A DNA stretch of 64,000 bases, from NCBI GenBank assembly GCA_051745285.1, contig JBNJDX010000004.1, forward strand, positions 1,651 through 65,650, read 5' to 3'. Positions 47,724 through 63,999 of this stretch are shown here, piece by piece. Numbering within the stretch: position 1 is the first letter of the stretch; every line of letters starts with the position of its first letter. The notes below the pieces were generated by a model. That model worked only from the letters and a program-made list of their open reading frames with translations. It made no database searches and was not told the origin of the DNA. The stretch comes from Spirochaetota bacterium (GTDB taxonomy: Bacteria; Spirochaetota; Spirochaetia; CAKZLE01). The position numbers and the translations under genes are program-made.

Positions 47724-48965
47724 CTATGTATGTTCAATCAGTGAGACAATATGGTCAGCAAAGGCACTGCAGGAGAGCTGATTGGCACCCTCCATCTGGG
47801 CGGCAAAGTCCCCGGTAACCTGTTTACTGGCTATGGCAGCTTCAATACCCGTTATCAACGCGTCGGCGGCCTCTATCCAGCCGATGTGACGGAGCATCAT
47901 CTCACAGGAGAGCACGAGAGAGAGAGGATTAGCCAGATCCTTCCCGGCGATATCAGGGGCAGTACCGTGAGTGGCCTCAAACAGTGCTGTCTGAGTCTCA
48001 TAGTTGATGTTCGCGCCAGGTGCAATCCCGATACCTCCCACCTCAGCGGCCAGAGCATCGGAGATGTAATCACCATTGAGATTGAGTGTAGCCACTACAT
48101 CGTAATCTTCCGGATGAAGCAGGATGTTCTGAAGGAACGCATCCGCAATGCAATCATTTACAGTGATCTGTTTACCAGTCTGCGGATTGGTAAAGACCAT
48201 GGAAGCACCCGAGCCTTCTTTACGTGCCCCGAATTCGCGTTCGGCCACCTCATAGCCCCAGGCTCGAAAACCTCCTTCGGTGAATTTCATGATATTCGCC
48301 TTATGGACCAGGGTCACTGAGGATCGGTCTTCATCGATAGCATACTGGATGGCTGCCCGCACGAGGCGTTCAGATCCCTCCCGAGAAACCGGTTTAATAC
48401 CGATACTCGAACTCTCGGGGAAGCGGATTGAATGCACGCCCATCTCATCCTGCAGAAAAGCTAATACTTTTCTGACCTCCGGAGTCTGAGCATCCCACTC
48501 AATTCCTGCATAAATGTCCTCGGTATTCTCCCGGAAGACCACTATATCGACACGCTCAGGATGCTTCAGCGGGGACGGAGTCCCTGAAAACCAACGAACC
48601 GGCCGAAGACAGACAAAGAGATCAAGCCTCTGACGCATTGTCACATTCAAGCTGCGCATCCCCTTGCCGACAGGCGTCATCAGTGGCCCTTTCACCGCCA
48701 GGGTATACTCCTCGATTGCCTCAAGGGTCTCTTCGGGAAGCCAGACCCCTTCGCCGAAAGTCTCAACAGACTTTCCGCCTGCATATATCTCTTTCCAGAC
48801 GAGGGCCCGATCACTTCCGTACGCCCGCCTCACGGCTGCATTGACAATGCTCTGAGCAGCCGGAGTGATGTCTTGTCCAATCCCGTCCCCTTCAATGAAC
48901 GGGATAATCGGATAATCAGGGACTGCCAGTGCTCCTTTTTTTCGTTCTATGGTACTTCCTTTCAT
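47724..48965 (-). CDS. icd: homodimeric isocitrate dehydrogenase, probably NAD+-preferring
   Basis: [38 protein letters not shown]. Confidence 0.95.
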
Positions 48966-50929
48966 GTGGTTTGTTCCTCCTGTTGCTGTTTTGTAAGATT
49001 TAATAGTCCACCTGCACGCAGCAAGGCAAGCTGCCTTGGGGAGAATTCTGCAACCAGAGGTATATCCCGCTTCCGGGTGATATTTTCCATGGTAACTGGC
49101 TGTCCGCTGTGTTGGGCCTGCTCTAACTGGGAGTGCAGATTTGGAATTCTCAACTCGTCATCCTGTTCAATTCTGCCATAATCAGCCGGATCGGCAAAGA
49201 TGAAGGGAATAATCCCGAAGTTAAACAGATTTGCCATGTGAATACGCTCAATCGAGAGAGCTACTACCGCTTTCACACCAAGATACATGGGGCATAAAGC
49301 TGCATGCTCTCTACTTGAGCCCTGCCCATAGGACTCTCCGGCAACGATGATATTATGCAGGCCCCGATCCCGGTTTGCAGCTGCGCGCTGGGGAAAATCC
49401 GGATCAACCTGTTCAAACACAAAAGCCGAGTAAGCCGGTACATTTGAGCGGTACTTGAGCCTGGCCCCTGCCGGCATAATATGGTCGGTGGTGATCTTAT
49501 CTCCAACCTTAATAGAAGCTTTGGCGTGTATCTCACCCGGAAGCGGTATGTTGACAGGGGGGTCCCCGATATTCGGCCCGCGCACGACTTCAACATAGTC
49601 TCCCTCCTGCGGAGGAAACACAAACATGGAGTCGTCGATGTAGAACGATGTGGGCATTTCCACTTCAGGGTAGGCAATATCCTGCTCCTCAAGCGGATCC
49701 ACAAAGGTTCCCCGTATTGCAGCCAGAGCTGCCGCTTCAGGACTCACCAGGTATACCTGGGCTGACTTTGTCCCCGAACGGCCTTCAAAATTCCGGTTAG
49801 AGGTCCGAAGGGAGACTGCGTCAGTTCCCGGGGACATATGGTTACCGATGCAGAAGCCGCAGGCACTCTCGAGTATACGTGCGCCGGCAGCAATAAGCTT
49901 TGCCAGATGCCCTTCCTGGGCGATCATGTTCAATACTTCCCGGGAACCGGGAGCAATCCCCAGACTGACGTGGGGAGCAACATGCTGTCCGTCGAGAATT
50001 TCAGCAACGGTACGTAGATCCTGATACGATGAATTGGTACATGAGCCAATGAGCACCTGATCAACCCTTCGGCCTGCCAGCTGTGCAATAGGGGCGATAT
50101 TCCCCGGTGAATGGGGCTGGGCAGTCAGGGGCTTCACCTCTGAGAGATTCAGTTCTAGGCTCTGATCGTATTCGGCATCCAAATCGGCTTTGAGCTCTCT
50201 CCAGTCCTCCCCTCTGCCCTGAGCTTCCATAAACACGCGCGTAGCCTCATCACTGGGGAAAATAGAGGTTGTCACCCCGCATTCAGCTCCCATATTGGTA
50301 ATAGTAGCACGCTCTGGCACGCTCAGCTGCTCTACGCCAGGACCCGTGTACTCAAATACTGTCCCGACGTTGCCCTTCGTCCCGAAGGTGCTCAGCACGT
50401 TCAAAATGACATCTTTGGCCGTCACCCATGGCCGCAGTTTTCCGGTGAGATGGATATTCACCACCTTCGGTGCGGTCATATAGAAAGGACCTCCACCCAT
50501 AGCTACCGCTACATCAATCCCTCCGGCTCCCATGGCAATCATCCCGATACCACCTCCTGTGGGAGTATGAGAGTCAGATCCAAGCAATGTTTTTCCCGGT
50601 ATTCCGAAACGTTCGAGGTGAACCTGATGGCAGATGCCGTTGCCGGGTCTGGAGAATATAATTCCGTATTTTTGCGCCACGGACTGCAAGTAGGCGTGAT
50701 CATCAGCATTCTCAAATCCGACTTGAATGGTATTGTGGTCTACGTAACTGACAGCAAGTTCGTTTTTTGCCCGGTCAAGTCCCATCGCCTCAAACTGCAG
50801 ATAGGCCATGGTCCCGGTTGCATCCTGAGTCAGCGTCTGATCAATGCGCAGGGCAATCTGTTTGCCGGCTTTCAGCTCACCCTCTACCACATGTTCCGAT
50901 AATATCTTATATGTCAGTGTTTTTCCCAT
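48962..50929 (-). CDS. acn: aconitate hydratase (short Aquifex/archaeal-like type)
   Basis: [44 protein letters not shown]. Confidence 0.93.
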
Positions 50930-52796: not shown

Positions 52797-52814
52797 TTGT
52801 TGATATATTAAATA
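52797..52814. promoter_or_regulatory. possible Rex-like operator in the AT-rich hyd promoter region
   Basis: TTGTTGA-TATA-TTAAATA resembles TTGT(G/T)AA-N4-TT(C/A)ACAA; the AT-rich context lowers significance. Confidence 0.3.
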
Positions 52815-52912
52815 TATATGTTATCATTTCTCATAAAGTACCTGAATGATCTATATAATAGGCTATAATCCTAGTATATAATCCTTCGGGAAGTTAAAGC
52901 ATGCATGAAACA

Positions 52913-53016: not shown

Positions 53017-53577
53017 ATGGCAGAAATTCTTGAACTCAAAAACAAAGAACCAGCACTCGACGCGGACAATGAGTTTGACTCAAAACAGATCATCCCAGTA
53101 ATCGATGATATCATCAAGCAATATGAGGGAAAGCGAGGAGCTCTTATACCGGTCCTGCAATCAGTTCAGAACTTCCTCGGGTATCTGCCTCAGGATATCC
53201 TCATTCATATCAGCGAGAAGATGCGCATTCCCTACAGTGAAATCACCGGTGTAGTCACGTTTTACTCCTTCTTCTCGACGGTTCCCAAAGGCCTGTATAT
53301 GGTTCGCGTGTGCCTGGGGACAGCCTGCTACGTTCGAGGTGGCAAAGAAGTTCTTGAGGCCATCTCCCGTGAACTCAATATTAAGGTGGGAGAGACCACT
53401 GAGGACAGAGTATTCTCTCTGGAAATCGGACGCTGTTTTGGCGCCTGTGGTCTCGCTCCGGTTGTCATGATCAATGACGACGTCCACCAGCGGGTCAAAC
53501 CCAATAAGATTCATGAACTGCTAGAGCCGTATCGTACGGAAGCTGAACGCAAGGAGGGAGGTCCAGATGAGAACTAG
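53017..53577 (+). CDS. hydC: [FeFe]-hydrogenase subunit HydC (NuoE-like, 2Fe-2S)
   Basis: GVVTFYSFF, CLGTACYVRG, CFGACGLAPV. Confidence 0.92.
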   Translation: MAEILELKNKEPALDADNEFDSKQIIPVIDDIIKQYEGKRGALIPVLQSVQNFLGYLPQDILIHISEKMRIPYSEITGVVTFYSFFSTVPKGLYMVRVCLGTACYVRGGKEVLEAISRELNIKVGETTEDRVFSLEIGRCFGACGLAPVVMINDDVHQRVKPNKIHELLEPYRTEAERKEGGPDEN

Positions 53578-56500
53578 GGACGTTATTCATACTTTTAACA
53601 AACAAGCCGACCAAATCACTGCAGACAAAGAGCGCCACCAAAAGCAGCACCAGGTACTTGTATGTACCGGAGGTGGATGCATTGCCTCCGGTTCCCTTGA
53701 AATCGAGAAGGCTTTTAAATCCGCAATTGAACATTACCATCTTGATATACCCGTCATTGGGACTGGATGTATGGGCCCCTGTTCGAAGGGACCCGTTGTA
53801 AAGATCATGCCCGAAAAAATTGTGTACCAACATGTCACGGTTAATCAGGTAGAAAAGATAACCACAGAACATCTCAAAGGCGGAACACCGGTCGAAGAGC
53901 TGCTCATGACAGACGACCATCCGGTTAAAATCCTTCATAATGAAACTGAAGCTGCATTTCTCTCCCCGCAGCAAAAAATAGTGCTCCGAAACTGCGGTGT
54001 TGTTGATCCGCTTGACATTACCGACTACATCGGTCGTCGCGGTTACCGGGGTCTAGCAAAAGTGCTCTCCGAGGACAGCAGTGATGCTGTCATTGATCAA
54101 CTGAAGACAGCCGGTCTGAAAGGCCGCGGCGGAGCGGGTTTTCCCACATGGCTGAAGTGGAAATTTGCCAGCGAGTCAGCCGGTAAGGAAAAATTTGTGT
54201 TATGTAACGCTGATGAGGGTGACCCGGGCGCGTTTATGGATCGCAGTGTACTTGAAGGAGATCCCCACAGTGTTATCGAGGGAATGGCAATCGCCGCCCT
54301 GACAATTGGAGCACAGCAGGGATATGTCTATGTCCGTGCCGAGTATCCTCTAGCGGTTGCCAGACTGCAGCGGGCAATCGAAGATGCCCGGTCATACGGT
54401 TTGCTAGGAGAGAATATCCTGGGATCAGGGTTCTCTTTCGATCTGGAAATACGGATGGGTTCCGGGGCGTTTGTCTGCGGAGAAGAGACTGCTCTGATCA
54501 ACTCCATTGAAGGGAAACGGGGAGAGCCGAGACCCCGGCCGCCGTTCCCTGCACAACAGGGGTTGTGGGGAAGCCCTACTCTGCTGAACAATGTTGAAAC
54601 GTATGCCAATATTCCTCCCATTATTGATCAGGGAGCACAGTGGTACAGCGGATTTGGTTCAGAGCACAGTAAGGGAACAAAAGTATTTGCCCTTGCCGGT
54701 GCAGTGAGAACAACGGGGCTTGTGGAAATTCCAATTGGCACTCCTTTAGGAGATCTGATCTTTACTGTCGGAGGGGGCATAAAACTCGGAAGACCCTTTA
54801 AGGCCGCCCAGATCGGAGGGCCCTCAGGCGGTTGTATTCCCAAGCAGCATCTGGGTGTACCACTTGATTATGAGAGTCTGAAGGAACTTGGAGCTATTAT
54901 TGGTTCAGGCGGTTTGATTGTACTGGATGACACCTCCTGCATGGTAGATGTTGCCCGCTATTTTCTTGAATTCATTCAGGAGGAATCCTGTGGTAAATGT
55001 GTACCCTGCCGAGTGGGAACAAAACGAATGCTTGAGATACTCACCCGCATCTGTAATGGTGAGGGCGTTCAAGGAGATATTGAAAAACTCGAAGAACTAG
55101 GTAGCCAGATAAGGCAGACTGCTCTATGCGGCTTGGGACAGACCGCTCCGAATCCTGTTTTGTCCACAATTCGCCATTTCAGAGATGAGTATGAAGCCCA
55201 CATCAGGGATAAACACTGTGAAGCCGGAGTTTGCCCCGGACTTGTCAGAGCTCCCTGCCAGAGCGCATGTCCTGCACGCGTCGATGTGCCGGGGTTTGTC
55301 GCCCTGAGTGCTGAAGGACGATATGCGGAGGCGCTTAAACTTCACCGCGAACGCAATCCTCTCGCCTCTATCTGCGCCAGAGTGTGCTTTCATACATGCG
55401 AGGATAAATGCCGAAGGACCAGTATCGACCAGCCGGTAGCAATCCGGAATATCAAGCGTTTTATGGTGGATCAGGAAGTCACCTTCCAGGTACCCGAAGT
55501 GCGAGAAAGCGAGGTCAATGCAAGACGCAATATTACCATAGTCGGAGCTGGGCCTGCAGGTCTGTCCTGTGCCTATTTTCTTGCTCGACTGGGTTACCGA
55601 CCAACCATTTTGGAAGCTTCAGTTCGTCCGGGTGGAATGCTGATACAAACAATTCCTGCCTACAGACTGCCACGTGAAACGGTTGCCCAAGAAATCCGCA
55701 TGATCGAACGAATGGGCGTAGACATAATCACAGAACAACGAATGGGCAGAGATTATACCCTTGAAAGCCTTCTTAATGATGCCCACACCGATGCAGTGTT
55801 CCTCGGGCTGGGAGCACCGGATTCCCTTTCCATGGGGCTTCCCGGGGAAGATGCCGAGGGTGTCATTCAGTCCGTCCCCTTCTTGCAGCGCTACAACGTA
55901 CGTGGCTCGGCAGAGGTCGGAAAACGCGTCATCGTCATTGGAGGCGGAAATGCGGCCATCGACGCAGCCCGCACTGCGCTGAGACTGGGAGCTGAAGCGG
56001 TAGAAATAGTTTATCGGCGAAGCCAGGAGGAGATGCCGGCCTATGCCGAGGAAGTAGCAGAAGCTCTCCAGGAGGGAGTTACAATTTCATCCCTCACTCA
56101 GCCGGTTGAGATCAAGAAGGACTCCTCCGGACATGTGAACGGACTGAAATGTCTGCGAATGAGTTTGGGAGAATTCGATGCCTCAGGACGGCGCAGACCG
56201 AAGGCCCTCAGTGATGAGCCGATCACTCTGAAAGCCGATCAGGTTATCATGGCTATCGGGCAGCGGCTAGACCTCCGTGAACTGCTCGGTGAGACTGACA
56301 TACAGCTTAACAGTAAGGGTTTTATTGCCAGTAGTCCTGTGGACGGGGCAACTTCTATACGCTCTGTATTTGCCGGAGGAGACTGCAGTGATGGACCAGC
56401 CTCGGTAGTTGAAGCAATTGCAGCGGGAGAACGGGCAGCTGTCGGTATAGACCAGATGCTCACCGGTGAAAACCACGCTTTCTGGCGGTATGAGAAGATA

Positions 56501-56710
56501 ATTGAGACTGCTTTTGATCCTGATGCCGAACCAAGTAATGAGCCTCGAGCAGAAATCAACCAGGTGCCCATTGAACGGCGGAGGGCCAACTTTGAAGAAG
56601 TTGAAAGGCCCTGGTGTGAGTCAGTAACCAAAGCTCAGGCAATACGATGTCTCCGGTGTGATTATGGAAAGCACATTCGGGAAGAAGACAAGGAGGAAAC
56701 TCATGCATAA
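53567..56710 (+). CDS. hydB: [FeFe]-hydrogenase flavin subunit HydB (NuoF-like) fused to a GltD/NfnL-like FAD-NAD(P)H module
   Basis: Trx-like CTGGGC..CMGPC; GRGGAGFPT; NADEGDPGAFMDRS; ESCGKCVPC; then APCQSACP, CARVC..TCEDKC, GAGPAG, GGGNAAID, YRRS, CLRC. Confidence 0.88.
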   Translation: MRTRDVIHTFNKQADQITADKERHQKQHQVLVCTGGGCIASGSLEIEKAFKSAIEHYHLDIPVIGTGCMGPCSKGPVVKIMPEKIVYQHVTVNQVEKITTEHLKGGTPVEELLMTDDHPVKILHNETEAAFLSPQQKIVLRNCGVVDPLDITDYIGRRGYRGLAKVLSEDSSDAVIDQLKTAGLKGRGGAGFPTWLKWKFASESAGKEKFVLCNADEGDPGAFMDRSVLEGDPHSVIEGMAIAALTIGAQQGYVYVRAEYPLAVARLQRAIEDARSYGLLGENILGSGFSFDLEIRMGSGAFVCGEETALINSIEGKRGEPRPRPPFPAQQGLWGSPTLLNNVETYANIPPIIDQGAQWYSGFGSEHSKGTKVFALAGAVRTTGLVEIPIGTPLGDLIFTVGGGIKLGRPFKAAQIGGPSGGCIPKQHLGVPLDYESLKELGAIIGSGGLIVLDDTSCMVDVARYFLEFIQEESCGKCVPCRVGTKRMLEILTRICNGEGVQGDIEKLEELGSQIRQTALCGLGQTAPNPVLSTIRHFRDEYEAHIRDKHCEAGVCPGLVRAPCQSACPARVDVPGFVALSAEGRYAEALKLHRERNPLASICARVCFHTCEDKCRRTSIDQPVAIRNIKRFMVDQEVTFQVPEVRESEVNARRNITIVGAGPAGLSCAYFLARLGYRPTILEASVRPGGMLIQTIPAYRLPRETVAQEIRMIERMGVDIITEQRMGRDYTLESLLNDAHTDAVFLGLGAPDSLSMGLPGEDAEGVIQSVPFLQRYNVRGSAEVGKRVIVIGGGNAAIDAARTALRLGAEAVEIVYRRSQEEMPAYAEEVAEALQEGVTISSLTQPVEIKKDSSGHVNGLKCLRMSLGEFDASGRRRPKALSDEPITLKADQVIMAIGQRLDLRELLGETDIQLNSKGFIASSPVDGATSIRSVFAGGDCSDGPASVVEAIAAGERAAVGIDQMLTGENHAFWRYEKIIETAFDPDAEPSNEPRAEINQVPIERRRANFEEVERPWCESVTKAQAIRCLRCDYGKHIREEDKEETHA

Positions 56711-58484
56711 AATAACAATTAACGGAAAGACAGCCGAGGCTCCTCTGAGCTCTACTATCCTTGAGGCCGCGAACAGATTGGGAATACACATACCGACTCT
56801 CTGCTACCTTGAAGGACTTTCCCCGGCAGCTTCTTGTCGCGTATGCGTTGTTGAAGTGGAAGGTGCTGCCAACTTGATGGCAGCCTGCTCAACACCAATC
56901 CGTGACAACATGGTTATACATACGAACTCCAAGCGAGTCAGAGAAGCCCGCAAGACCGTGGTGGAATTGCTGCTCAGCGAACACGTGGGGGACTGCCAAA
57001 CCTGCATCCGCAGTAATGACTGTGAACTGAAAGAACTAGCCCGAGAGCTAGGTATCCGGGAAAACCGCTACGAGGGGGAAGAAACCGATGACTTCCTGGA
57101 TGAATCAACCCCGGCTATTTTTCGTGATGCAGGTAAATGCATTAAGTGCCGCCGATGCGTCCAGGTATGTAACGATATCCAACAGGTAGGCGTCATATTC
57201 CCGCAGTACAGAGGGTTCCAGACAACAATCAGCCCTGCTTTCTCTTCCCCTCTCGACTCTGTGGCGTGTGTACAGTGCGGTCAATGCTCGGCAGTCTGTC
57301 CTGTTGGTGCCATTCTTGAGACTAGTCATATTGAGCAGGTTCTTAACGCGCTCGACGATCCGAAAAAACATGTGGTCGTGCAGACAGCACCGGCCATCCG
57401 TGCAGCACTGGGTGAGTGTTTCGGGTATCCGGTAGGCACCCTTGTTACCGGAAAAATGGTCTCCTCCCTCAGGGAGCTGGGATTTGACGCAGTATTCGAC
57501 ACCGACTTCACCGCAGATCTGACTATTGTCGAGGAGGGAACAGAACTGCTTTCACGGCTTAAGGATAAGTTCTTCCTGAAAAAGAAACATGTTCCGCTGC
57601 CCCAGTTCACCAGTTGTTCACCTGGTTGGATTCAGTACGCTGAGTATTTCTTCCCCGACATGCTGGAGAATATATCCTCATGCAAGTCTCCCCAGCAGAT
57701 GTTCGGGGCGCTTGCAAAGACCTACTACGCGCAAAAAGCTGATGTAGATCCAGAAAATATGGTGGTCGTCTCTGTTATGCCCTGCACAGCCAAAAAATTT
57801 GAAGCTGCCAGACCGGAAATGAATGCAAGCGGATTCCAGGATGTGGATTATGTTTTGACTACCCGTGAGCTTGGGGATTTGATTACGCTTTCAGGCATCG
57901 ATTTTGACAGGCTGCCTGAAGGAACTATGGACGACCCGCTGGGTATATCGACCGGCGCAGCAGATATTTTTGCCAACACCGGCGGCGTTATGGAGGCAGC
58001 TCTCAGGACGGTACATGCCCTGACGACTGGGAAGAGCCTGCCGTCAAAGGATCTTCACATCAAACCGCTTGCTGGACTGGAAGGGATAAAGACAGCATCG
58101 GTTGTCTTGAAAAATACTGTTGAACAGTGGTCCTTCCTCGAGGGAGTAGAAGTAAAGGTTGCAGTAGCTCATGGACTCGGGAATGCAGCAAAGCTCACCG
58201 AACGCATCCGAGAGAATCCTGATGAATTTCATTTTGTCGAGATTATGACCTGCCCTGGCGGATGCATCGGAGGCGGCGGACAACCGCGTTTCACTACAAA
58301 CGAAGTGCGTGAAGCGAGAATTGCCGCTATTTATCAAGAGGACGAAGGGAAGGAGATACGGGAATCACATGAAAATCCTGCCGTCCAAGCCCTGTATAAG
58401 GAGTATCTCAAAAAACCGCTTGGAAAGCGTTCTCACAAACTCCTTCACACCCATTATGAGGTACGTGAGAAAGTACGAACCTAG
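56703..58484 (+). CDS. hydA: [FeFe]-hydrogenase catalytic subunit (group A, M3-like)
   Basis: H-cluster motifs FTSCSPGW, MPCTAKKFE, EIMTCPGGCIGGGGQP; N-terminal 2Fe-2S, His-ligated 4Fe-4S and 2x4Fe-4S; C-terminal LLHTHY. Confidence 0.96.
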   Translation: MHKITINGKTAEAPLSSTILEAANRLGIHIPTLCYLEGLSPAASCRVCVVEVEGAANLMAACSTPIRDNMVIHTNSKRVREARKTVVELLLSEHVGDCQTCIRSNDCELKELARELGIRENRYEGEETDDFLDESTPAIFRDAGKCIKCRRCVQVCNDIQQVGVIFPQYRGFQTTISPAFSSPLDSVACVQCGQCSAVCPVGAILETSHIEQVLNALDDPKKHVVVQTAPAIRAALGECFGYPVGTLVTGKMVSSLRELGFDAVFDTDFTADLTIVEEGTELLSRLKDKFFLKKKHVPLPQFTSCSPGWIQYAEYFFPDMLENISSCKSPQQMFGALAKTYYAQKADVDPENMVVVSVMPCTAKKFEAARPEMNASGFQDVDYVLTTRELGDLITLSGIDFDRLPEGTMDDPLGISTGAADIFANTGGVMEAALRTVHALTTGKSLPSKDLHIKPLAGLEGIKTASVVLKNTVEQWSFLEGVEVKVAVAHGLGNAAKLTERIRENPDEFHFVEIMTCPGGCIGGGGQPRFTTNEVREARIAAIYQEDEGKEIRESHENPAVQALYKEYLKKPLGKRSHKLLHTHYEVREKVRT

Positions 58485-58803: not shown

Positions 58804-58831
58804 CGGGTTGCAGAATTCTTGCTGCAACCCG
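58804..58831. terminator. hairpin between the tRNA and the CBS gene
   Basis: CGGGTTGCAG...CTGCAACCCG. Confidence 0.65.
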
Positions 58832-60524: not shown

Positions 60525-62261
60525 CTACAACAGTGTTTTCACTTTGATTTCAAATAGTTTGTCATCATCCCACAACTCGCAGGTCTTTTGGAGAGTCCAT
60601 AAACGAGCAGTATCACCTTCTTCGCCATTAGAGGTGATTGCCCAGGCATCATAGGCAACTGGGTATATACTACCGACCAGATTCGCTTGATCGTCTTCGA
60701 TCTTAAATTTACCCAATCCGTACCCGGATGCAGTGCTCCATAGAGCTCCATCATGCCAAGCAATATCGTTACCCACGGTATGGGAAAGTCTGATTTCTTT
60801 ATCAATGGCAACAACCGGTTTATCTGGATCAATATTCTTTAGATCTATCACATATAGCTTATCCTGCATTCGACTGGGCAGCAACAAGAGGGTCTCGTCA
60901 AAGAATGTTAACCCCATCGTACCGCCCTCAGATTGGTCGGGAATATCGTAGGACCAACCTTTTACATCAGTGACGGCTTCACCTTCGGCTATATCCACTG
61001 GAGGTTTAAAACGATACAGTTTCTTTTCACTGAAATCATTTACATAGAAATATTCACCATCATGCGTCAGGCCCCGAGGGTTGACGGCAAAATCCGTAGC
61101 CATCTTTATATACGCATCAGTTTCTGGATCTGTCTCCGGATCGAAATCCGGATCAAGGTCTGGATTTATGCGGATAAAATCCAATCCATTACCGTGTTCT
61201 CCATCACCTATACTGAAGCGCCATAAGAAACCATCATAGTAATGAAGCGCCCAACCGAAAGACAGCGCTAAGCCCTCTCCCAGTGTTTTTGTGACTTCTC
61301 TAGTCGCATCTTCCTCATCATAAACATAAAGATACTCATCTGAATCCGTAGCCGGTCGATATCCCAAGGTATAGCCAGTGGGAACAGAATAGCCAAATAC
61401 AGGGCGATTTGAATCATCGGTCTCATCACTGTTATTGGATGTATTGCCCGTGGAATCTTCCGGAATCATGATTTTATCGTAATCAGGCGACATACCATAG
61501 AACTTATTTCTCTCAATATTCAGCGTAGAGGACATACCTGCTGTTATGGCATGACTAGTATATGTATCAAAATAATTATTACTAATCGTGCACTCGGTAT
61601 TCTCTGCGTGTACACCTACAAACCCATTCTGAAATAGATTATCATGTATCTCTACGCCTACGTTGAATTGTTCAAGAGCAATCTCGTGATAAGCATTTTG
61701 ATATAGCGTATTATACGCAAAGGTCGGTGAAGACTGTTCAGCATAGAGTCCTTCAGTATTATTCCAGCGAATGACCGAATAGGAGACAGGAACCGATGAA
61801 TCAAATTGCTCCACACCGATTTCGGCAAATTCCACAACGGTGTATCGTAGCTCGGAGTTATCAGTATCGAGCAAAGAAATCCCAAACCAATCGCCATTGA
61901 TTGCGTAGTCAAAACCAGCAGCCTCATAATCAGAGGTGAAAAAAATTTGTTCTTCTGCTGTACCGATGGCTCTCAGAGTTCCTCCCTCTACTCCTAAACC
62001 GCCTTTATTTACATCAACATATCCGCGATCTGCTCTGAACTTCACAACTGTGCCGGGCTCGATAGTGAGAGTAACACCCTCTGGAACAATAACATATCCA
62101 GCTTCGACAACTCCTGACCATGTTGTATCTCTCTGCAAAACACCTTCTGTGGAATTGAATTCCGCTATCGGAGCTATCGGACAGGCAGTCAGTGCTAACG
62201 CCAAGCTAACCATGAACAAACCTGATACGGACACTGCTGAAAATGGCTTCATTCTCTTCAT
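60525..62261 (-). CDS. lipoprotein with right-handed beta-helix and C-terminal beta-propeller-like domain
   Basis: Lipobox LTAC; VPEGVTLTIEPGTVVKF..GTAEEQIFFTS..GDWFGI; Asn ladders; NPRGLTHDGEYFYV and DIAWHDGALW repeats. Confidence 0.75.
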   Translation of the reverse strand: MKRMKPFSAVSVSGLFMVSLALALTACPIAPIAEFNSTEGVLQRDTTWSGVVEAGYVIVPEGVTLTIEPGTVVKFRADRGYVDVNKGGLGVEGGTLRAIGTAEEQIFFTSDYEAAGFDYAINGDWFGISLLDTDNSELRYTVVEFAEIGVEQFDSSVPVSYSVIRWNNTEGLYAEQSSPTFAYNTLYQNAYHEIALEQFNVGVEIHDNLFQNGFVGVHAENTECTISNNYFDTYTSHAITAGMSSTLNIERNKFYGMSPDYDKIMIPEDSTGNTSNNSDETDDSNRPVFGYSVPTGYTLGYRPATDSDEYLYVYDEEDATREVTKTLGEGLALSFGWALHYYDGFLWRFSIGDGEHGNGLDFIRINPDLDPDFDPETDPETDAYIKMATDFAVNPRGLTHDGEYFYVNDFSEKKLYRFKPPVDIAEGEAVTDVKGWSYDIPDQSEGGTMGLTFFDETLLLLPSRMQDKLYVIDLKNIDPDKPVVAIDKEIRLSHTVGNDIAWHDGALWSTASGYGLGKFKIEDDQANLVGSIYPVAYDAWAITSNGEEGDTARLWTLQKTCELWDDDKLFEIKVKTLL

Positions 62262-62553
62262 AACGTCCCCCAGAATAGAAATGGTAGTTACGAGAGTGTT
62301 GTGCAATAAAGATAGAAGTTTTTCAGCAGTGGGTACACCTCAGACTCAGTAAAAGGCGGTAACATCTCCCGTGTTAGTAGCTTTAATTCTGTACACCTAT
62401 ATTCTCAGTCTTACATAGGTTTTAGACCAAGTCAATTGAAAATCATACTTATTAATTGACTAATTTGTTTCATATTTTGCAGTTAAAAACTCGTCTGGAC
62501 AGCATCAGGATATATTAAGGAAGAAATTACAGAATATTCTAGAGGTAGGAAAA

Positions 62554-62600
62554 ACATGTCTTGAGGTATGCGGTCATCGGTTCAAATCCACCCAGCCCGA
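62554..62600 (+). repeat. degenerate copy of the tRNA-Pro 3' half (att-like direct repeat)
   Basis: GGTCATCGGTTCAAATCCACCCAGCCCGA (62572-62600) matches 58628-58656 at 26/29; weaker similarity extends into the anticodon arm. Confidence 0.85.
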
Positions 62601-63020
62601 TACCTTGTGAAAAGACATTCCCTACAGGTTCTTCATAACTACATGCCCACCATAAGAACATAGAAAGATTGGAATGTGTGCTTCCCCCCCATAGAGGCGA
62701 TGCATACCGGTAGTATTCTCTGAAAGAACAAATGAGAGCAAAGAAAAATTGGAGGGTAAAAAGAACTGTCGATTGTAGCTACTGCCTCTTCAACTAACCC
62801 TCTGAAGATCCATAATAGTCGTATCAGAACGGAGAATGAAGCTGAAACCTGAATAGCTCTTATGGTCCGCTTTTTTGTCAGGTGTTACGAACCACACGTT
62901 GAGTAATCGATAATTTCTTACATTTGGAAGTGAAAATCCGGCGAGCAAACTTACCGTCAGCAACACTGTTCGAAAGTTCGTGTTACTGCGATCACATACA
63001 GTGCTGGCATGAAACCAAAC

Positions 63021-63062
63021 AGGGACTGCTGCTAAAGCCTTACGACTTTTGCAACAGCCCCT
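63021..63062 (-). terminator. intrinsic terminator of the ice-binding protein gene
   Basis: Minus strand AGGGGCTGTTGCAAAAG...CTTTAGCAGCAGTCCCT followed by a T-rich run. Confidence 0.55.
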
Positions 63063-63078
63063 TACACTAATTACGATT

Positions 63079-63999
63079 CTATGGTCCGGTTATAGCATTA
63101 GCATCCAGGGTGACGGCCGTCTGGGACAGCAGTCTTCCGTTTACTGACGCTCCATTAAGGACCGGGATGTTCGTTTTGGTCAGCAGCGTTCCCGCAAACT
63201 GAGACGTTGTGCCCAAAGATGCTTGTGAACCGACCTGCCAAACGATATTCTCTGCACGTGCTCCACCGGCGAGTGAAACTTTGACTCCATTAGCCACTAC
63301 GAGATCCTCGGCGATCTGGAACACCCACGTTGCCGTATCGGATCCCCAGATTACTACATCGGTGGTAATTGAGACTCCGGTACCCCATTTGTATAAACCG
63401 GGTTCCAAGGTCTTTCCGCCAATCTCTCCAGCTCCCAAGTCGGTGTAATCCGGACTCGAGAGTCCTGCAGCAGTAGTATACGCATTTTCCATGTCGCTGA
63501 CGGCTGTCGTCAGGATCGAGGGCGTAGGAGCTGTGTAATCTGCAGCATATAACTTCCCGGTCACGTAGGATGACGTCGAATACTCTCCACTTGAGTCCAT
63601 TGTCACGGAAAATCCGGTTAAGGACGTCGAACCTTCCGGGCTTAGCCCGATATCTCCGATAACGCTGGTGGTACCAGTGGTACTAACCCCCGATTTTGCA
63701 AGAATCGCGTAGTTTGCGGCGGTGCCCAGATCCACTGAGCCAGGTCCTCCATCGGGACCACTCCCAAGATTCTTTGACGTGGCCGTCGTAAACGTCCAGA
63801 TTTTTTTCTCCTCCATTGCGTTACCGGCGGTATCCGTCACTGCGGTAGTGATCGTCGCGGTATAAGTGGTTCCAGTTGCAAGATTGGCCCCAGGAGTGAA
63901 GCTAGCTGTCAAATCATCTGTGTTGTAGGTAACCGTACCCGATATCTGTGAGGTTCCAGCGTATAGTGTGAAACTGTCAGTATCGATTGTCGTATTATC
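63079..63999 (-). CDS. DUF3494 ice-binding family protein with a preceding Ig-like (Big_5) domain; 5' end outside the window
   Basis: VDLGTAANYAILAKSGVS, AVSDMENAY, LEPGLYKW, WVFQI, AENIVWQV, NGRLLSQTAVTLDAN; upstream FTPGANL..GTTYTATITT..D.AGN...WTFTT. Confidence 0.92.
   Translation of the reverse strand, partial: DNTTIDTDSFTLYAGTSQISGTVTYNTDDLTASFTPGANLATGTTYTATITTAVTDTAGNAMEEKKIWTFTTATSKNLGSGPDGGPGSVDLGTAANYAILAKSGVSTTGTTSVIGDIGLSPEGSTSLTGFSVTMDSSGEYSTSSYVTGKLYAADYTAPTPSILTTAVSDMENAYTTAAGLSSPDYTDLGAGEIGGKTLEPGLYKWGTGVSITTDVVIWGSDTATWVFQIAEDLVVANGVKVSLAGGARAENIVWQVGSQASLGTTSQFAGTLLTKTNIPVLNGASVNGRLLSQTAVTLDANAITGP

Follow-up and report, generated by a model that had tools for sequence, protein, structure and literature searches.

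The window analysed here comprises 64,000 nucleotides (positions 1,651 to 65,650 of the forward strand of contig JBNJDX010000004.1, assembly GCA_051745285.1) from a Spirochaetota bacterium. It encodes on its + strand, at window positions 53017-58484, a three-gene operon, hydC-hydB-hydA, for a relative of the trimeric [FeFe]-hydrogenases HydABC, in which the HydB subunit (HydB* hereafter) joins a core resembling that of the bifurcating enzymes directly to a GltD-type cassette carrying binding motifs for flavin adenine dinucleotide (FAD) and NADP(H). We suggest, tentatively, that NADP(H) replaces ferredoxin on the low-potential branch of the enzyme, so that a member of the HydABC family would couple H2 to NADH and NADPH together; this is the simplest reading because the two [4Fe-4S] clusters B3 and B4 of HydB are replaced by iron-sulfur (Fe-S) sites that lead to an FAD/NADP(H) pocket. 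In its fuller form, which we hold still more loosely, the proposal is that the Bfu family here includes a two-flavin enzyme which does without ferredoxin, uses NADP(H), via a non-bifurcating FAD, as the low-potential partner for the FMN/[4Fe-4S]/[2Fe-2S] bifurcation site and poises H2 against the NADH and NADPH pools; it would then be the first Bfu-type enzyme with a pyridine nucleotide at the low-potential end, possibly with a serine-bearing H-cluster.

Architecture of HydB*

An earlier interpretation that relied on the letters of the DNA and their translations (the sequence-only reading) had placed hydC, hydB and hydA in this region and had quoted for the 1047-residue HydB a series of motifs typical of bifurcating enzymes, all of which are indeed present: EGDPGAFMD at residues 217-225, KVF at 372-374, GGPSGG at 417-422 and EAHI at 543-546, followed by C551 and C556. 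The Pfam search outlines the core of HydB* (gene at 53567..56710, + strand) as an N-terminal thioredoxin-like [2Fe-2S] domain for cluster B5 (residues 24-99, nucleotides 53636..53863; 2Fe-2S_thioredx, PF01257, 2e-6) and a region (residues 180-545, 54104..55201) that holds the flavin mononucleotide (FMN)/NAD(H) site, the SLBB domain and the NuoF-type [4Fe-4S] cluster B1 (Complex1_51K, PF01512, 180-350, 9e-46; SLBB, PF10531; NADH_4Fe-4S, PF10589, 461-545, 3e-36), which is the complete domain set of a BfuB/HydB core. Beyond this core, Fer4_20 (549-638, 2e-19) and Pyr_redox_2 (655-954, 2e-31) occupy the place of the ferredoxin-type 2x[4Fe-4S] domain with B3 and B4 (IPR017896), and no ferredoxin-type Fer4 dicluster family was detected in HydB* by the Pfam search at E <= 0.01. 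The Pfam and NCBIfam values for HydB, HydC and HydA are far beyond chance.

Among solved structures, residues 26-560 of HydB* match best the HydB of A. woodii (7q4v_B, 731 bits), followed by the HydB of the NiFe enzyme, StnB and NfnB, and then by the HydB subunits of T. kivui and T. maritima. The transition to the cassette can be located with precision. The His/Cys site B2, which consists of H545, C551 and C556 (55199..55234) together with C458 (54938-54940) and is conserved in 40/40 close homologues, lies directly before the junction; the region around it aligns with EYEAHIRDKKCPAGVC of 7q4v_B, and the alignment, near-identical through EYEAHIRDKxCxAGVC, ends there, so that the GltD-type cassette begins right after the last cysteine of the B2 site, at the point where the solved homologues run on into B3/B4. 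The replacement of the C-terminal ferredoxin-like domain by a GltD-type module, which the sequence-only reading had proposed, is thus confirmed both by the domain search and by the end point of this alignment.

According to the descriptions that accompany the published structures, the B2 site is occupied by Zn in both the FeFe enzymes and Nfn-Bfu but by a [2Fe-2S] cluster in the NiFe enzyme, and the reduction of ferredoxin is placed at B3/B4 of HydB. In the domain definitions of Schut 2022, the B2 histidine is conserved in BfuB and absent from the non-bifurcating homologues, and the ferredoxin-type domain IPR017896 forms part of the definition of BfuB. Because the best structural matches are to bifurcating enzymes, the His and Cys residues of B2 are invariant, and all ligands of B5, B1 and the HydC cluster C1 are in place, we assign the core of HydB* to the bifurcating type.

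Kinship of the cassette

What kind of GltD-related module, then, has been attached to this core? The cassette spans residues 558-1032 (55238..56662; 475 residues), with the same boundaries as in S. ovata StnC (98-566) and C. saccharolyticus NfnA (98-567), and its bit scores rank these two proteins first (366 for NfnA, 9bov_A; 332 for StnC, 8oh5_C), ahead of T. maritima NfnB (309), P. furiosus NfnL (247) and true GltD (172). The match to StnC/NfnA includes a linker of ~60 residues that follows the flavoprotein fold and ends in RCLRC, whereas the matches to NfnB and NfnL stop at about residue 970; the terminal C1028-L-R-C1031 (56648..56659), 16 residues before the end of HydB*, aligns with RCLEC, the start of the next Fe-S motif in StnC/NfnA, its two cysteines corresponding to the first two of that motif. 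The FAD-binding motif GAGPAG (G660-G665, 55544..55561) and the NADP(H)-type motif (G792-R818, 55940..56020, with GGGNAA at 792-797 and YRRS at 816-819) are both present in the sequence. A Foldseek search with an AlphaFold2 model of HydB* retrieved the same two sets of neighbours as the sequence comparison, namely HydB-type proteins for the core and StnC/NfnA/NfnL-type proteins for the cassette, the latter superimposing on StnC/NfnA over 482 columns with a root-mean-square deviation (rmsd) of 3.8-3.9.

The ligand correspondences are equally informative: K630 aligns with K170 of StnC, R700 with R239, V574 with C114 and V560 with C100. StnC K170 is the lysine ligand of the FAD-proximal cluster and is strictly conserved in StnC, whereas NfnL has a glutamate at this position; C114 is replaced by Val or Ile in some homologues (Stn paper). 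Given the shared boundaries, the higher bit scores and the lysine at the FAD-proximal cluster, the cassette is best classified with StnC/NfnA and not with the bifurcating NfnL. The NfnSL arrangement, a glutamate-ligated proximal cluster combined with an NfnS partner that gives the FAD a second electron path, is not what is found here: residue 630 is Lys, and the ORF listing shows no NfnS-like gene in the operon. The description of the module as GltD/SudA/NfnL-like in the sequence-only reading accordingly holds for its Fe-S, FAD and NADP-type motifs and has to be amended with respect to its closest relatives. It appears unlikely, from the same correspondences, that the FAD of the cassette bifurcates electrons, and the double bifurcation that had been contemplated for this enzyme finds no support in a StnC/NfnA-type, non-bifurcating cassette with K630 in the place of the NfnL glutamate. 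Of 18 divergent fused representatives, 12 have Lys at position 630 and 4 have Glu, with His and Gly in one each; the NfnL-like Glu occurs in some NuoF-GltD fusion lineages (P0130, P0140, P0146 and P0148).

The similarity to the GltD family also brings to mind a glutamate synthase-linked hydrogenase, along the lines of group A2 of HydDB, in which the cassette would act as a GltD that passes electrons to GltB; a link to glutamate has been the subject of speculation in the Vallitalea paper (Schouw et al. 2018). We consider this very improbable: true GltD scores 172 bits against 366 for NfnA, the organism has its own gltB-gltD pair elsewhere, and there is no gltB near the operon within the window. 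Furthermore, the HydDB rule for group A2 calls for a protein immediately downstream of HydA that has a GltD/GltA domain and no NuoF; here the GltD-bearing protein has a NuoF part as well and lies upstream of HydA.

Proposed electron flow and energetics

In the published structures, as far as their descriptions go, the bifurcation site is the FMN together with B1 and the mobile HydC cluster C1, and the usual low-potential branch runs from the [2Fe-2S] cluster C1 of HydC via B3/B4 of HydB to ferredoxin. In the complex described here, the low-potential branch would end instead in the StnC/NfnA-type cassette, with two Fe-S clusters, FAD and an NADP(H) site, a type of module that serves as a plain NADPH port in Stn/NfnABC. 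H2, on the HydA branch, would thus exchange electrons with NAD(H) at the FMN and with NADP(H) at the FAD, free of ferredoxin, with the putative stoichiometry 2 H2 + NAD+ + NADP+ <-> NADH + NADPH + 2 H+. We infer this electron path, together with its stoichiometry, its energetic coupling and its independence from ferredoxin, from the domain architecture and the conserved ligands.

In energetic terms, the physiological potentials listed by Schut 2022 for NAD (-280 mV), NADP (-380 mV), H2 (-414 mV) and ferredoxin (-500 mV) allow a simple Nernst estimate. The mean potential of the NADH and NADPH pair, -330 mV, balances H2 at ~1.4e-3 bar (about 150 Pa), and the canonical pair of NADH and ferredoxin balances at ~0.15 bar H2. 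At the low H2 of anoxic sediments, H2 would be the mid-potential partner, with NAD as the high and NADP as the low partner, and this order fits the proposed topology; the enzyme could then serve, at sediment-like H2, as a valve that opens in either direction between H2 and the two pools of pyridine nucleotides.

Distribution and conservation of the fusion

Could the fusion be an artefact of assembly, a caveat that the sequence-only reading itself had raised? The NuoF/GltD junction (around nucleotide 55232) is spanned by independently assembled contigs from RNA libraries (run X1, record 3, 53521-55551; run X2, record 12, 55146-56000), single contigs of the same origin also bridge the hydC/hydB and hydB/hydA boundaries, and the contigs of library X1 cover the operon in 30/30 bins. 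In runs X2-X4, some bins of the operon are without contigs, and neither these holes nor the differences in depth were used. All these runs come from one study, may contain DNA and may share a sampling campaign with the genome, so the contigs attest to independent assembly and to presence in RNA libraries rather than to a single transcript. Furthermore, among the matches listed, 119 other protein clusters of 966-1070 residues have the same domain set, with 63-82% identity. Because the junction is bridged and the same architecture recurs in many protein clusters, the fusion is not an assembly artefact, and the expectation that similar fusions would exist in the databases is amply borne out.

A junction query of 291 residues, compared to the GTDB species genomes, yielded at least 586 relatives among at least 598 pattern matches, of which 80 loci, with 69-81% identity over at least query residues 2-285, were kept. 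The operon is accordingly present in at least 80 species genomes from more than ten phyla; metagenome-assembled genomes of Spirochaetaceae are the closest among the kept loci, and the titles of the others name Kiritimatiellia, Planctomycetota, Omnitrophota, Verrucomicrobiota, Lentisphaerae, Bacteroidota, Ignavibacteria/Kapaibacteria, Acidobacteria, Hydrogenedentota and Sumerlaeota, among others. Species in culture also figure in these titles: Paludibacter jiangxiensis, Victivallis vadensis and relatives of Marispirochaeta and Sediminispirochaeta. The gene order is conserved as well: HydC is encoded upstream of hydB* in 66 of the 68 loci with room for it and HydA downstream in 66/66, and hydC-hydB*-hydA is contiguous in 59 of 60 testable loci, the exception being Hydrogenedens, where HydC lies ~2 kb further upstream. 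In the related loci, HydA is 55-76% and HydC 48-78% identical to the proteins of the window. In a set of 21 genomes (20 relatives plus this genome), the full junction is found at >=67% identity in 10.

The conservation of individual residues extends over the entire fused protein. In 40/40 close homologues, the invariant positions comprise, besides the B2 site, the B5 ligands C33, C38, C68 and C72; the B1 ligands C475, C478, C481 and C521; the loop G186-G191; C564, C568, C607, C611, C615, K630 and R700 of the cassette; GxGxxG at 660-665; the NADP-type GGGN.A.D..R and YRR at 792-818; and the terminal R1027-C1028-L-R-C1031. Full-length fused forms are also found among the representatives at 50% identity, down to ~31% identity in the core, and the 18 divergent fused proteins retain without exception C458, H545, C551, five cysteines of the cassette, GxGxxG, GxGxxA, R818 and both terminal cysteines, with C556 kept in 17/18 and R817 in 15/18. 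The invariance of the FAD- and NADP-type motifs in 40/40 and their retention in 18/18 down to this level of divergence argue for selection on nucleotide binding. This pattern bears on another scenario, in which ferredoxin or some other low-potential acceptor would only dock at, or receive electrons through, the cassette, without turnover of NADP(H). Such a role has been proposed, on the basis of structural modelling, for archaeal hybrid hydrogenases (Greening et al. 2024); for HydB* it seems improbable, considering that the retention of GxGxxG, GxGxxA and R818 in 18/18 and of the NADP motif in 40/40 is hard to explain without nucleotide binding.

In a FastTree phylogeny of 119 NuoF-type cores, the HydB* clade of the window is nested among ferredoxin-type HydB, which is consistent with domain replacement; 11 other fused forms make up a separate deep clade, and there are 7 label changes, of which at least 4 are forced by well-supported branches. 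The scatter of the fused forms over this tree may be partly an artefact. The residues at the junction and the terminal CxxC are the same in 18/18 full-length fused representatives, and because the junction is identical throughout, the scatter is not taken here as evidence for several fusion events.

HydC and HydA

HydC (53017..53577) is a complete NuoE/HoxE-like [2Fe-2S] protein (PF01257, 5e-50) with four cysteines in CLGTAC...CFGAC, as befits a BfuC/HydC subunit carrying cluster C1. HydA (56703..58484), the catalytic subunit, has the N-terminal [2Fe-2S] domain, the His-ligated [4Fe-4S] domain, the 2x[4Fe-4S] domain, the H-cluster domain and the small-subunit tail; it matches Fe_hyd_lg_C with 6e-93 and exceeds the cut-off of the NCBIfam model NF040763, 'NADH-dependent [FeFe] hydrogenase, group A6' (863 bits against 765).

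The L1 motif of HydA is FTSCSPGW (57606..57629), in which Ser replaces the second Cys of TSCCP; it aligns with the FTSCCPAW/FTSCCPGW of 7qv7_D, 8a6t_A and 8ryh_A (HydA2 of HDCR, T. kivui HydA1 and D. desulfuricans HydAB, respectively). This second Cys we take to be a ligand of the [4Fe-4S] part of the H-cluster in CpI and DdH, and the [4Fe-4S] part of the H-cluster may therefore have Ser in place of a Cys ligand in the present enzyme. The substitution is the rule in this group: SCSP is found in 66 of 70 HydA proteins of the related loci and SCCP in 4, and TSCSP in L1 is accompanied by a CPGGC variant of L3. L2 (MPCTAKKFE) and L3 (EIMTCPGGCIGGGG) are intact and conserved. A TSCSP substitution has been mentioned for Melainabacteria (Di Rienzi 2013). 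Two loci of Planctomycetota/Thermoguttaceae (L059 and L064) contain, at ~2857-2947, a second HydA-like gene with FTSCSPGW, ~6 kb upstream of the operon HydA.

The classification of HydA raises the possibility that the complex is an uncoupled, NAD(P)H-dependent hydrogenase, in which either nucleotide would feed the H-cluster with neither bifurcation nor confurcation and H2 would be formed only at very low pressure. Non-bifurcating NADH-dependent HydAB(C) enzymes do exist (S. wolfei, S. aciditrophicus), and their HydA falls under the same A6 model as the HydA of the window; the FAD of a StnC/NfnA-type module is a plain electron-transfer flavin; and, within the same genome, contig C25 (4623-8212) encodes a TSCSPGW HydA next to a HydB of 417 residues that lacks both terminal domains, so TSCSP is shared with a HydA that stands beside a short HydB of the non-bifurcating type. 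The non-bifurcating enzymes reportedly have a short HydB devoid of the conserved His and of both terminal domains, the N-terminal one with its [2Fe-2S] cluster included. In HydB*, by contrast, that N-terminal domain and the His are retained and the cassette is added, and a full HydC accompanies it, all of these features being invariant in the clade; an uncoupled enzyme accordingly strikes us as rather unlikely.

Genome context

The genome assembly (2.12 Mb, 106 contigs, 89% complete) encodes several other systems that handle the same electron carriers. A canonical cluster on contig C50 (8254-13325) comprises HydC, a HATPase_c protein, a 133-residue ORF, a ferredoxin-type HydB of 595 residues and a HydA with TSCCPAW; in addition, there are an NfnAB-like pair (contig C14), gltB-gltD, a YgfK-like gene and a pyruvate:ferredoxin oxidoreductase. 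Because the canonical HydABC, the NfnAB-like pair and the pyruvate:ferredoxin oxidoreductase are all in place, the fused enzyme is an addition to the ferredoxin-linked systems and no substitute for them.

This inventory is relevant to yet another alternative, namely a four-substrate enzyme in which ferredoxin would still dock near the distal cluster of the cassette or at the C-terminal domain of HydC, and the cassette would add NADP(H), so that HydABC-like and Nfn-like reactions would be combined. In the T. sibiricus NfnABC structure, as described, ferredoxin is wedged between BfuC's C-terminal domain and the Fe-S domain of the B subunit, and a two-cluster Fe-S domain is still found at that place in HydB*. 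In NfnSL, moreover, the homologous clusters of NfnL are those that lead to ferredoxin. Nevertheless, HydB* lacks the ferredoxin-like fold to which the published docking surface belongs, and the organism has separate HydABC and NfnAB-like genes, so we regard the four-substrate enzyme as an unlikely alternative to the exchange of ferredoxin for NADP(H).

The maturases of the H-cluster present a puzzle of their own. Among the 21 genomes searched, HydE, HydF and HydG are all over the cut-off in the same 6, with HydA found in 18; the remaining 12 of these 18 HydA-bearing genomes, some of them 96-100% complete, yielded neither HydE nor HydF nor HydG, and their HydA proteins include both the TSCSP and the TSCCP forms. 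The fusion junction is carried by 9 of the relatives, and HydG is absent from 6 of these, including genomes that are 97-100% complete. It would be conceivable, then, that no working hydrogenase is involved at all, HydA being an Fe-S conduit or the holder of another cluster in a complex that would act as a transhydrogenase between NADH and NADPH or in some similar way; the L1 motif TSCSP would fit with such a role. We deem this quite improbable: L2 and L3 are intact and conserved; canonical TSCCP HydA proteins occur in the same maturase-less genomes, so that the lack of maturases does not concern this enzyme alone; HydG is present in other carriers (G002, G004 and G005, as well as 4 of the 5 fusion carriers of other lineages); and active [FeFe] hydrogenases have been reported from organisms without maturases. 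The same puzzle of missing maturases has been described for archaea in Greening 2024. The gap lowers our confidence in the maturation of HydA in this organism only slightly.

Two further gene clusters of the genome contain relatives of the cassette. On contig C9 (4873-7841), a Complex1_49kDa gene ([NiFe] group-4-like) lies directly upstream of a gene for a 637-residue protein with a Fer4 dicluster, Fer4_20 and Pyr_redox_2, and this pair may be another GltD-linked, hydrogenase-like module. On contig C2 (3904-9704), the YgfK-like GltD-family protein of 1060 residues adjoins an amidohydrolase and an M20 peptidase, in what looks like a cluster for purine or selenium-linked catabolism.

Observations that weigh against the proposal

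Several observations speak against the exchange of ferredoxin for NADP(H) or, at least, complicate it. The equivalent domain of an archaeal HydB has been modelled as a low-potential acceptor site, with 'likely ferredoxin' as the acceptor (Greening et al. 2024). The cysteine C100 of StnC has no Cys counterpart in HydB* (V560), and the candidates for the missing ligand of the distal cluster (C603, C551/C556 and C1028/C1031) are guesses from the alignment. The AlphaFold2 model of HydB*, built with 40 homologues, has a mean predicted local distance difference test score (pLDDT) of 74 and a predicted TM-score (pTM) of 0.50, with pLDDT < 50 for residues 554-563 and 370-454, so the modelled geometry between the domains is unreliable and cluster-to-cluster distances cannot be derived from it. 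HydA has a Ser at the position that we take to be that of an H-cluster Cys ligand. With the canonical HydABC and the NfnAB-like pair present, there is no obvious metabolic gap that this enzyme alone would fill. Finally, neither a family search nor tblastn with the proteins of a relative found HydE, HydF or HydG in this 89%-complete genome.

Comparison with known systems

The closest characterized relatives are the HydABC enzymes (A. woodii 7q4v, T. kivui 8a6t, T. maritima 7p5h; HydDB group A3; Bfu), which share with the present complex the three subunits, the same HydC, the HydB core up to and including the His/Cys site (731 bits to 7q4v_B; Foldseek TM-scores of 0.74-0.83, target-normalised) and the Fe-S domains and H-domain of HydA. 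The differences lie in the loss of B3/B4 in favour of the 475-residue FAD/NADPH cassette and in the TSCSP in place of TSCCP in L1. The StnABC/NfnABC complexes (S. ovata 8oh5, C. saccharolyticus 9bov, T. sibiricus 9n5u) likewise combine a BfuBC-type core with a GltD cassette that has the same boundaries, the Lys at the FAD-proximal cluster, the equivalent of R239 and the linker ending in RCLxC. These complexes lack an H-cluster, however; B3/B4 are retained in their B subunit, and it is the NuoG-like A subunit, part of the mid-potential input branch, that carries the cassette as an insertion. In the present case, B3/B4 have given way to the cassette within the B subunit, and a complete hydrogenase, free of such an insertion, serves as the A subunit. 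The similarity to NfnSL/NfnAB (T. maritima 4ylf, 309 bits; P. furiosus 5jca, 247 bits) is limited to the large subunit, with its fold and its cofactor motifs (Foldseek rmsd 2.6-2.8); HydB* has no NfnS partner domain, carries Lys in place of the Glu ligand and has an extension (971-1032) that is absent from NfnL/NfnB.

The architecture as such is already on record. An enlarged HydB of Vallitalea guaymasensis L81 (peg.3894-3896) received a remark in the annotation of this Firmicute genome (Schouw et al. 2018), and the likeness to HydB* is drawn from that description. Judging again by description, the archaeal group F hybrid [FeFe]/[NiFe] hydrogenases combine a HydB-type diaphorase with a GltA domain at the low-potential exit; they differ in forming five-gene complexes, with ferredoxin proposed as the acceptor at that domain (Greening et al. 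2024). An NfnL-like domain in 'FeFe hydrogenase group A' is also noted in Xiao 2025. Thus, HydB* is an uncharacterised variant of an architecture noted in print in 2018 (Vallitalea) and 2024 (archaeal hybrids): in line with the sequence-only reading, which knew of no biochemical characterisation, our literature searches, which did not cover supplementary tables, found none for the NuoF-GltD architecture of HydB.

Significance

In every Bfu/HydABC enzyme of solved structure considered here, the low-potential arm ends, according to the published descriptions, at ferredoxin via B3/B4, and the mechanism by which a single FMN with its neighbouring clusters bifurcates electrons is still debated in this literature. 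A natural and widespread variant that ends in FAD/NADP(H) would offer a clean test of electron gating, with a low-potential acceptor only ~100 mV below NAD. Should the coupling prove real, a direct exchange of H2 with NADPH could be open to many anaerobes not yet cultured, among the Spirochaetota, Planctomycetota, Verrucomicrobiota, Omnitrophota, Bacteroidota, Ignavibacteriota and other groups, and the modelling of their H2 thresholds and redox balance would change. Current classifications do not single out the HydB* form: the domain rule for Bfu would exclude it because no ferredoxin-type Fe-S domain is found, and the neighbour rule of HydDB would miss the fused HydB because that rule reads the protein downstream of HydA.

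Organization of the operon and its neighbourhood

The ORF listing and translations show the three genes to be tightly coupled, with both pairs overlapping, and each is preceded by a Shine-Dalgarno-like sequence. hydC starts with the ATG at 53017, with GGAGGGG upstream as the ribosome-binding site; hydB overlaps the hydC stop and has AAGGAGGG upstream; and hydA overlaps the hydB stop by 8 nucleotides, its most likely start being the ATG at 56703, which has AAGGAGG upstream and agrees with the start of the alignment in most homologues. A sigma-70-like promoter match lies 5' of hydC at 52800..52827 on the + strand (TTGATA-16-TATCAT, 10/12 matches, TG); this is weak evidence, given that 8 such sites were found in the region against a mean of 8.8 in shuffled sequence, that is, no excess. 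Downstream of hydA, a strong terminator-like hairpin at 58804..58831 (+ strand) has a 10-bp stem with 7 GC pairs and a T-rich tail. For the promoter as for the terminator, the evidence is limited to a match with the consensus.

The flanking genes appear not to belong to the hydCBA unit. The upstream flank contains genes for an MFS transporter, aconitase and isocitrate dehydrogenase on the opposite strand and a DUF212 gene on the + strand; hydA is followed by a CBS-domain gene on the other strand and by small ORFs without a family match. The isocitrate dehydrogenase and aconitase genes occupy 47724-50929 on the minus strand, ~2 kb upstream of the operon; this family of isocitrate dehydrogenases is often NADP-linked. 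Further downstream, the minus strand encodes, at 60525-63912, a beta-helix protein of 593 residues and an ice-binding-like protein with a Big_5 domain (PF11999, 2e-71).

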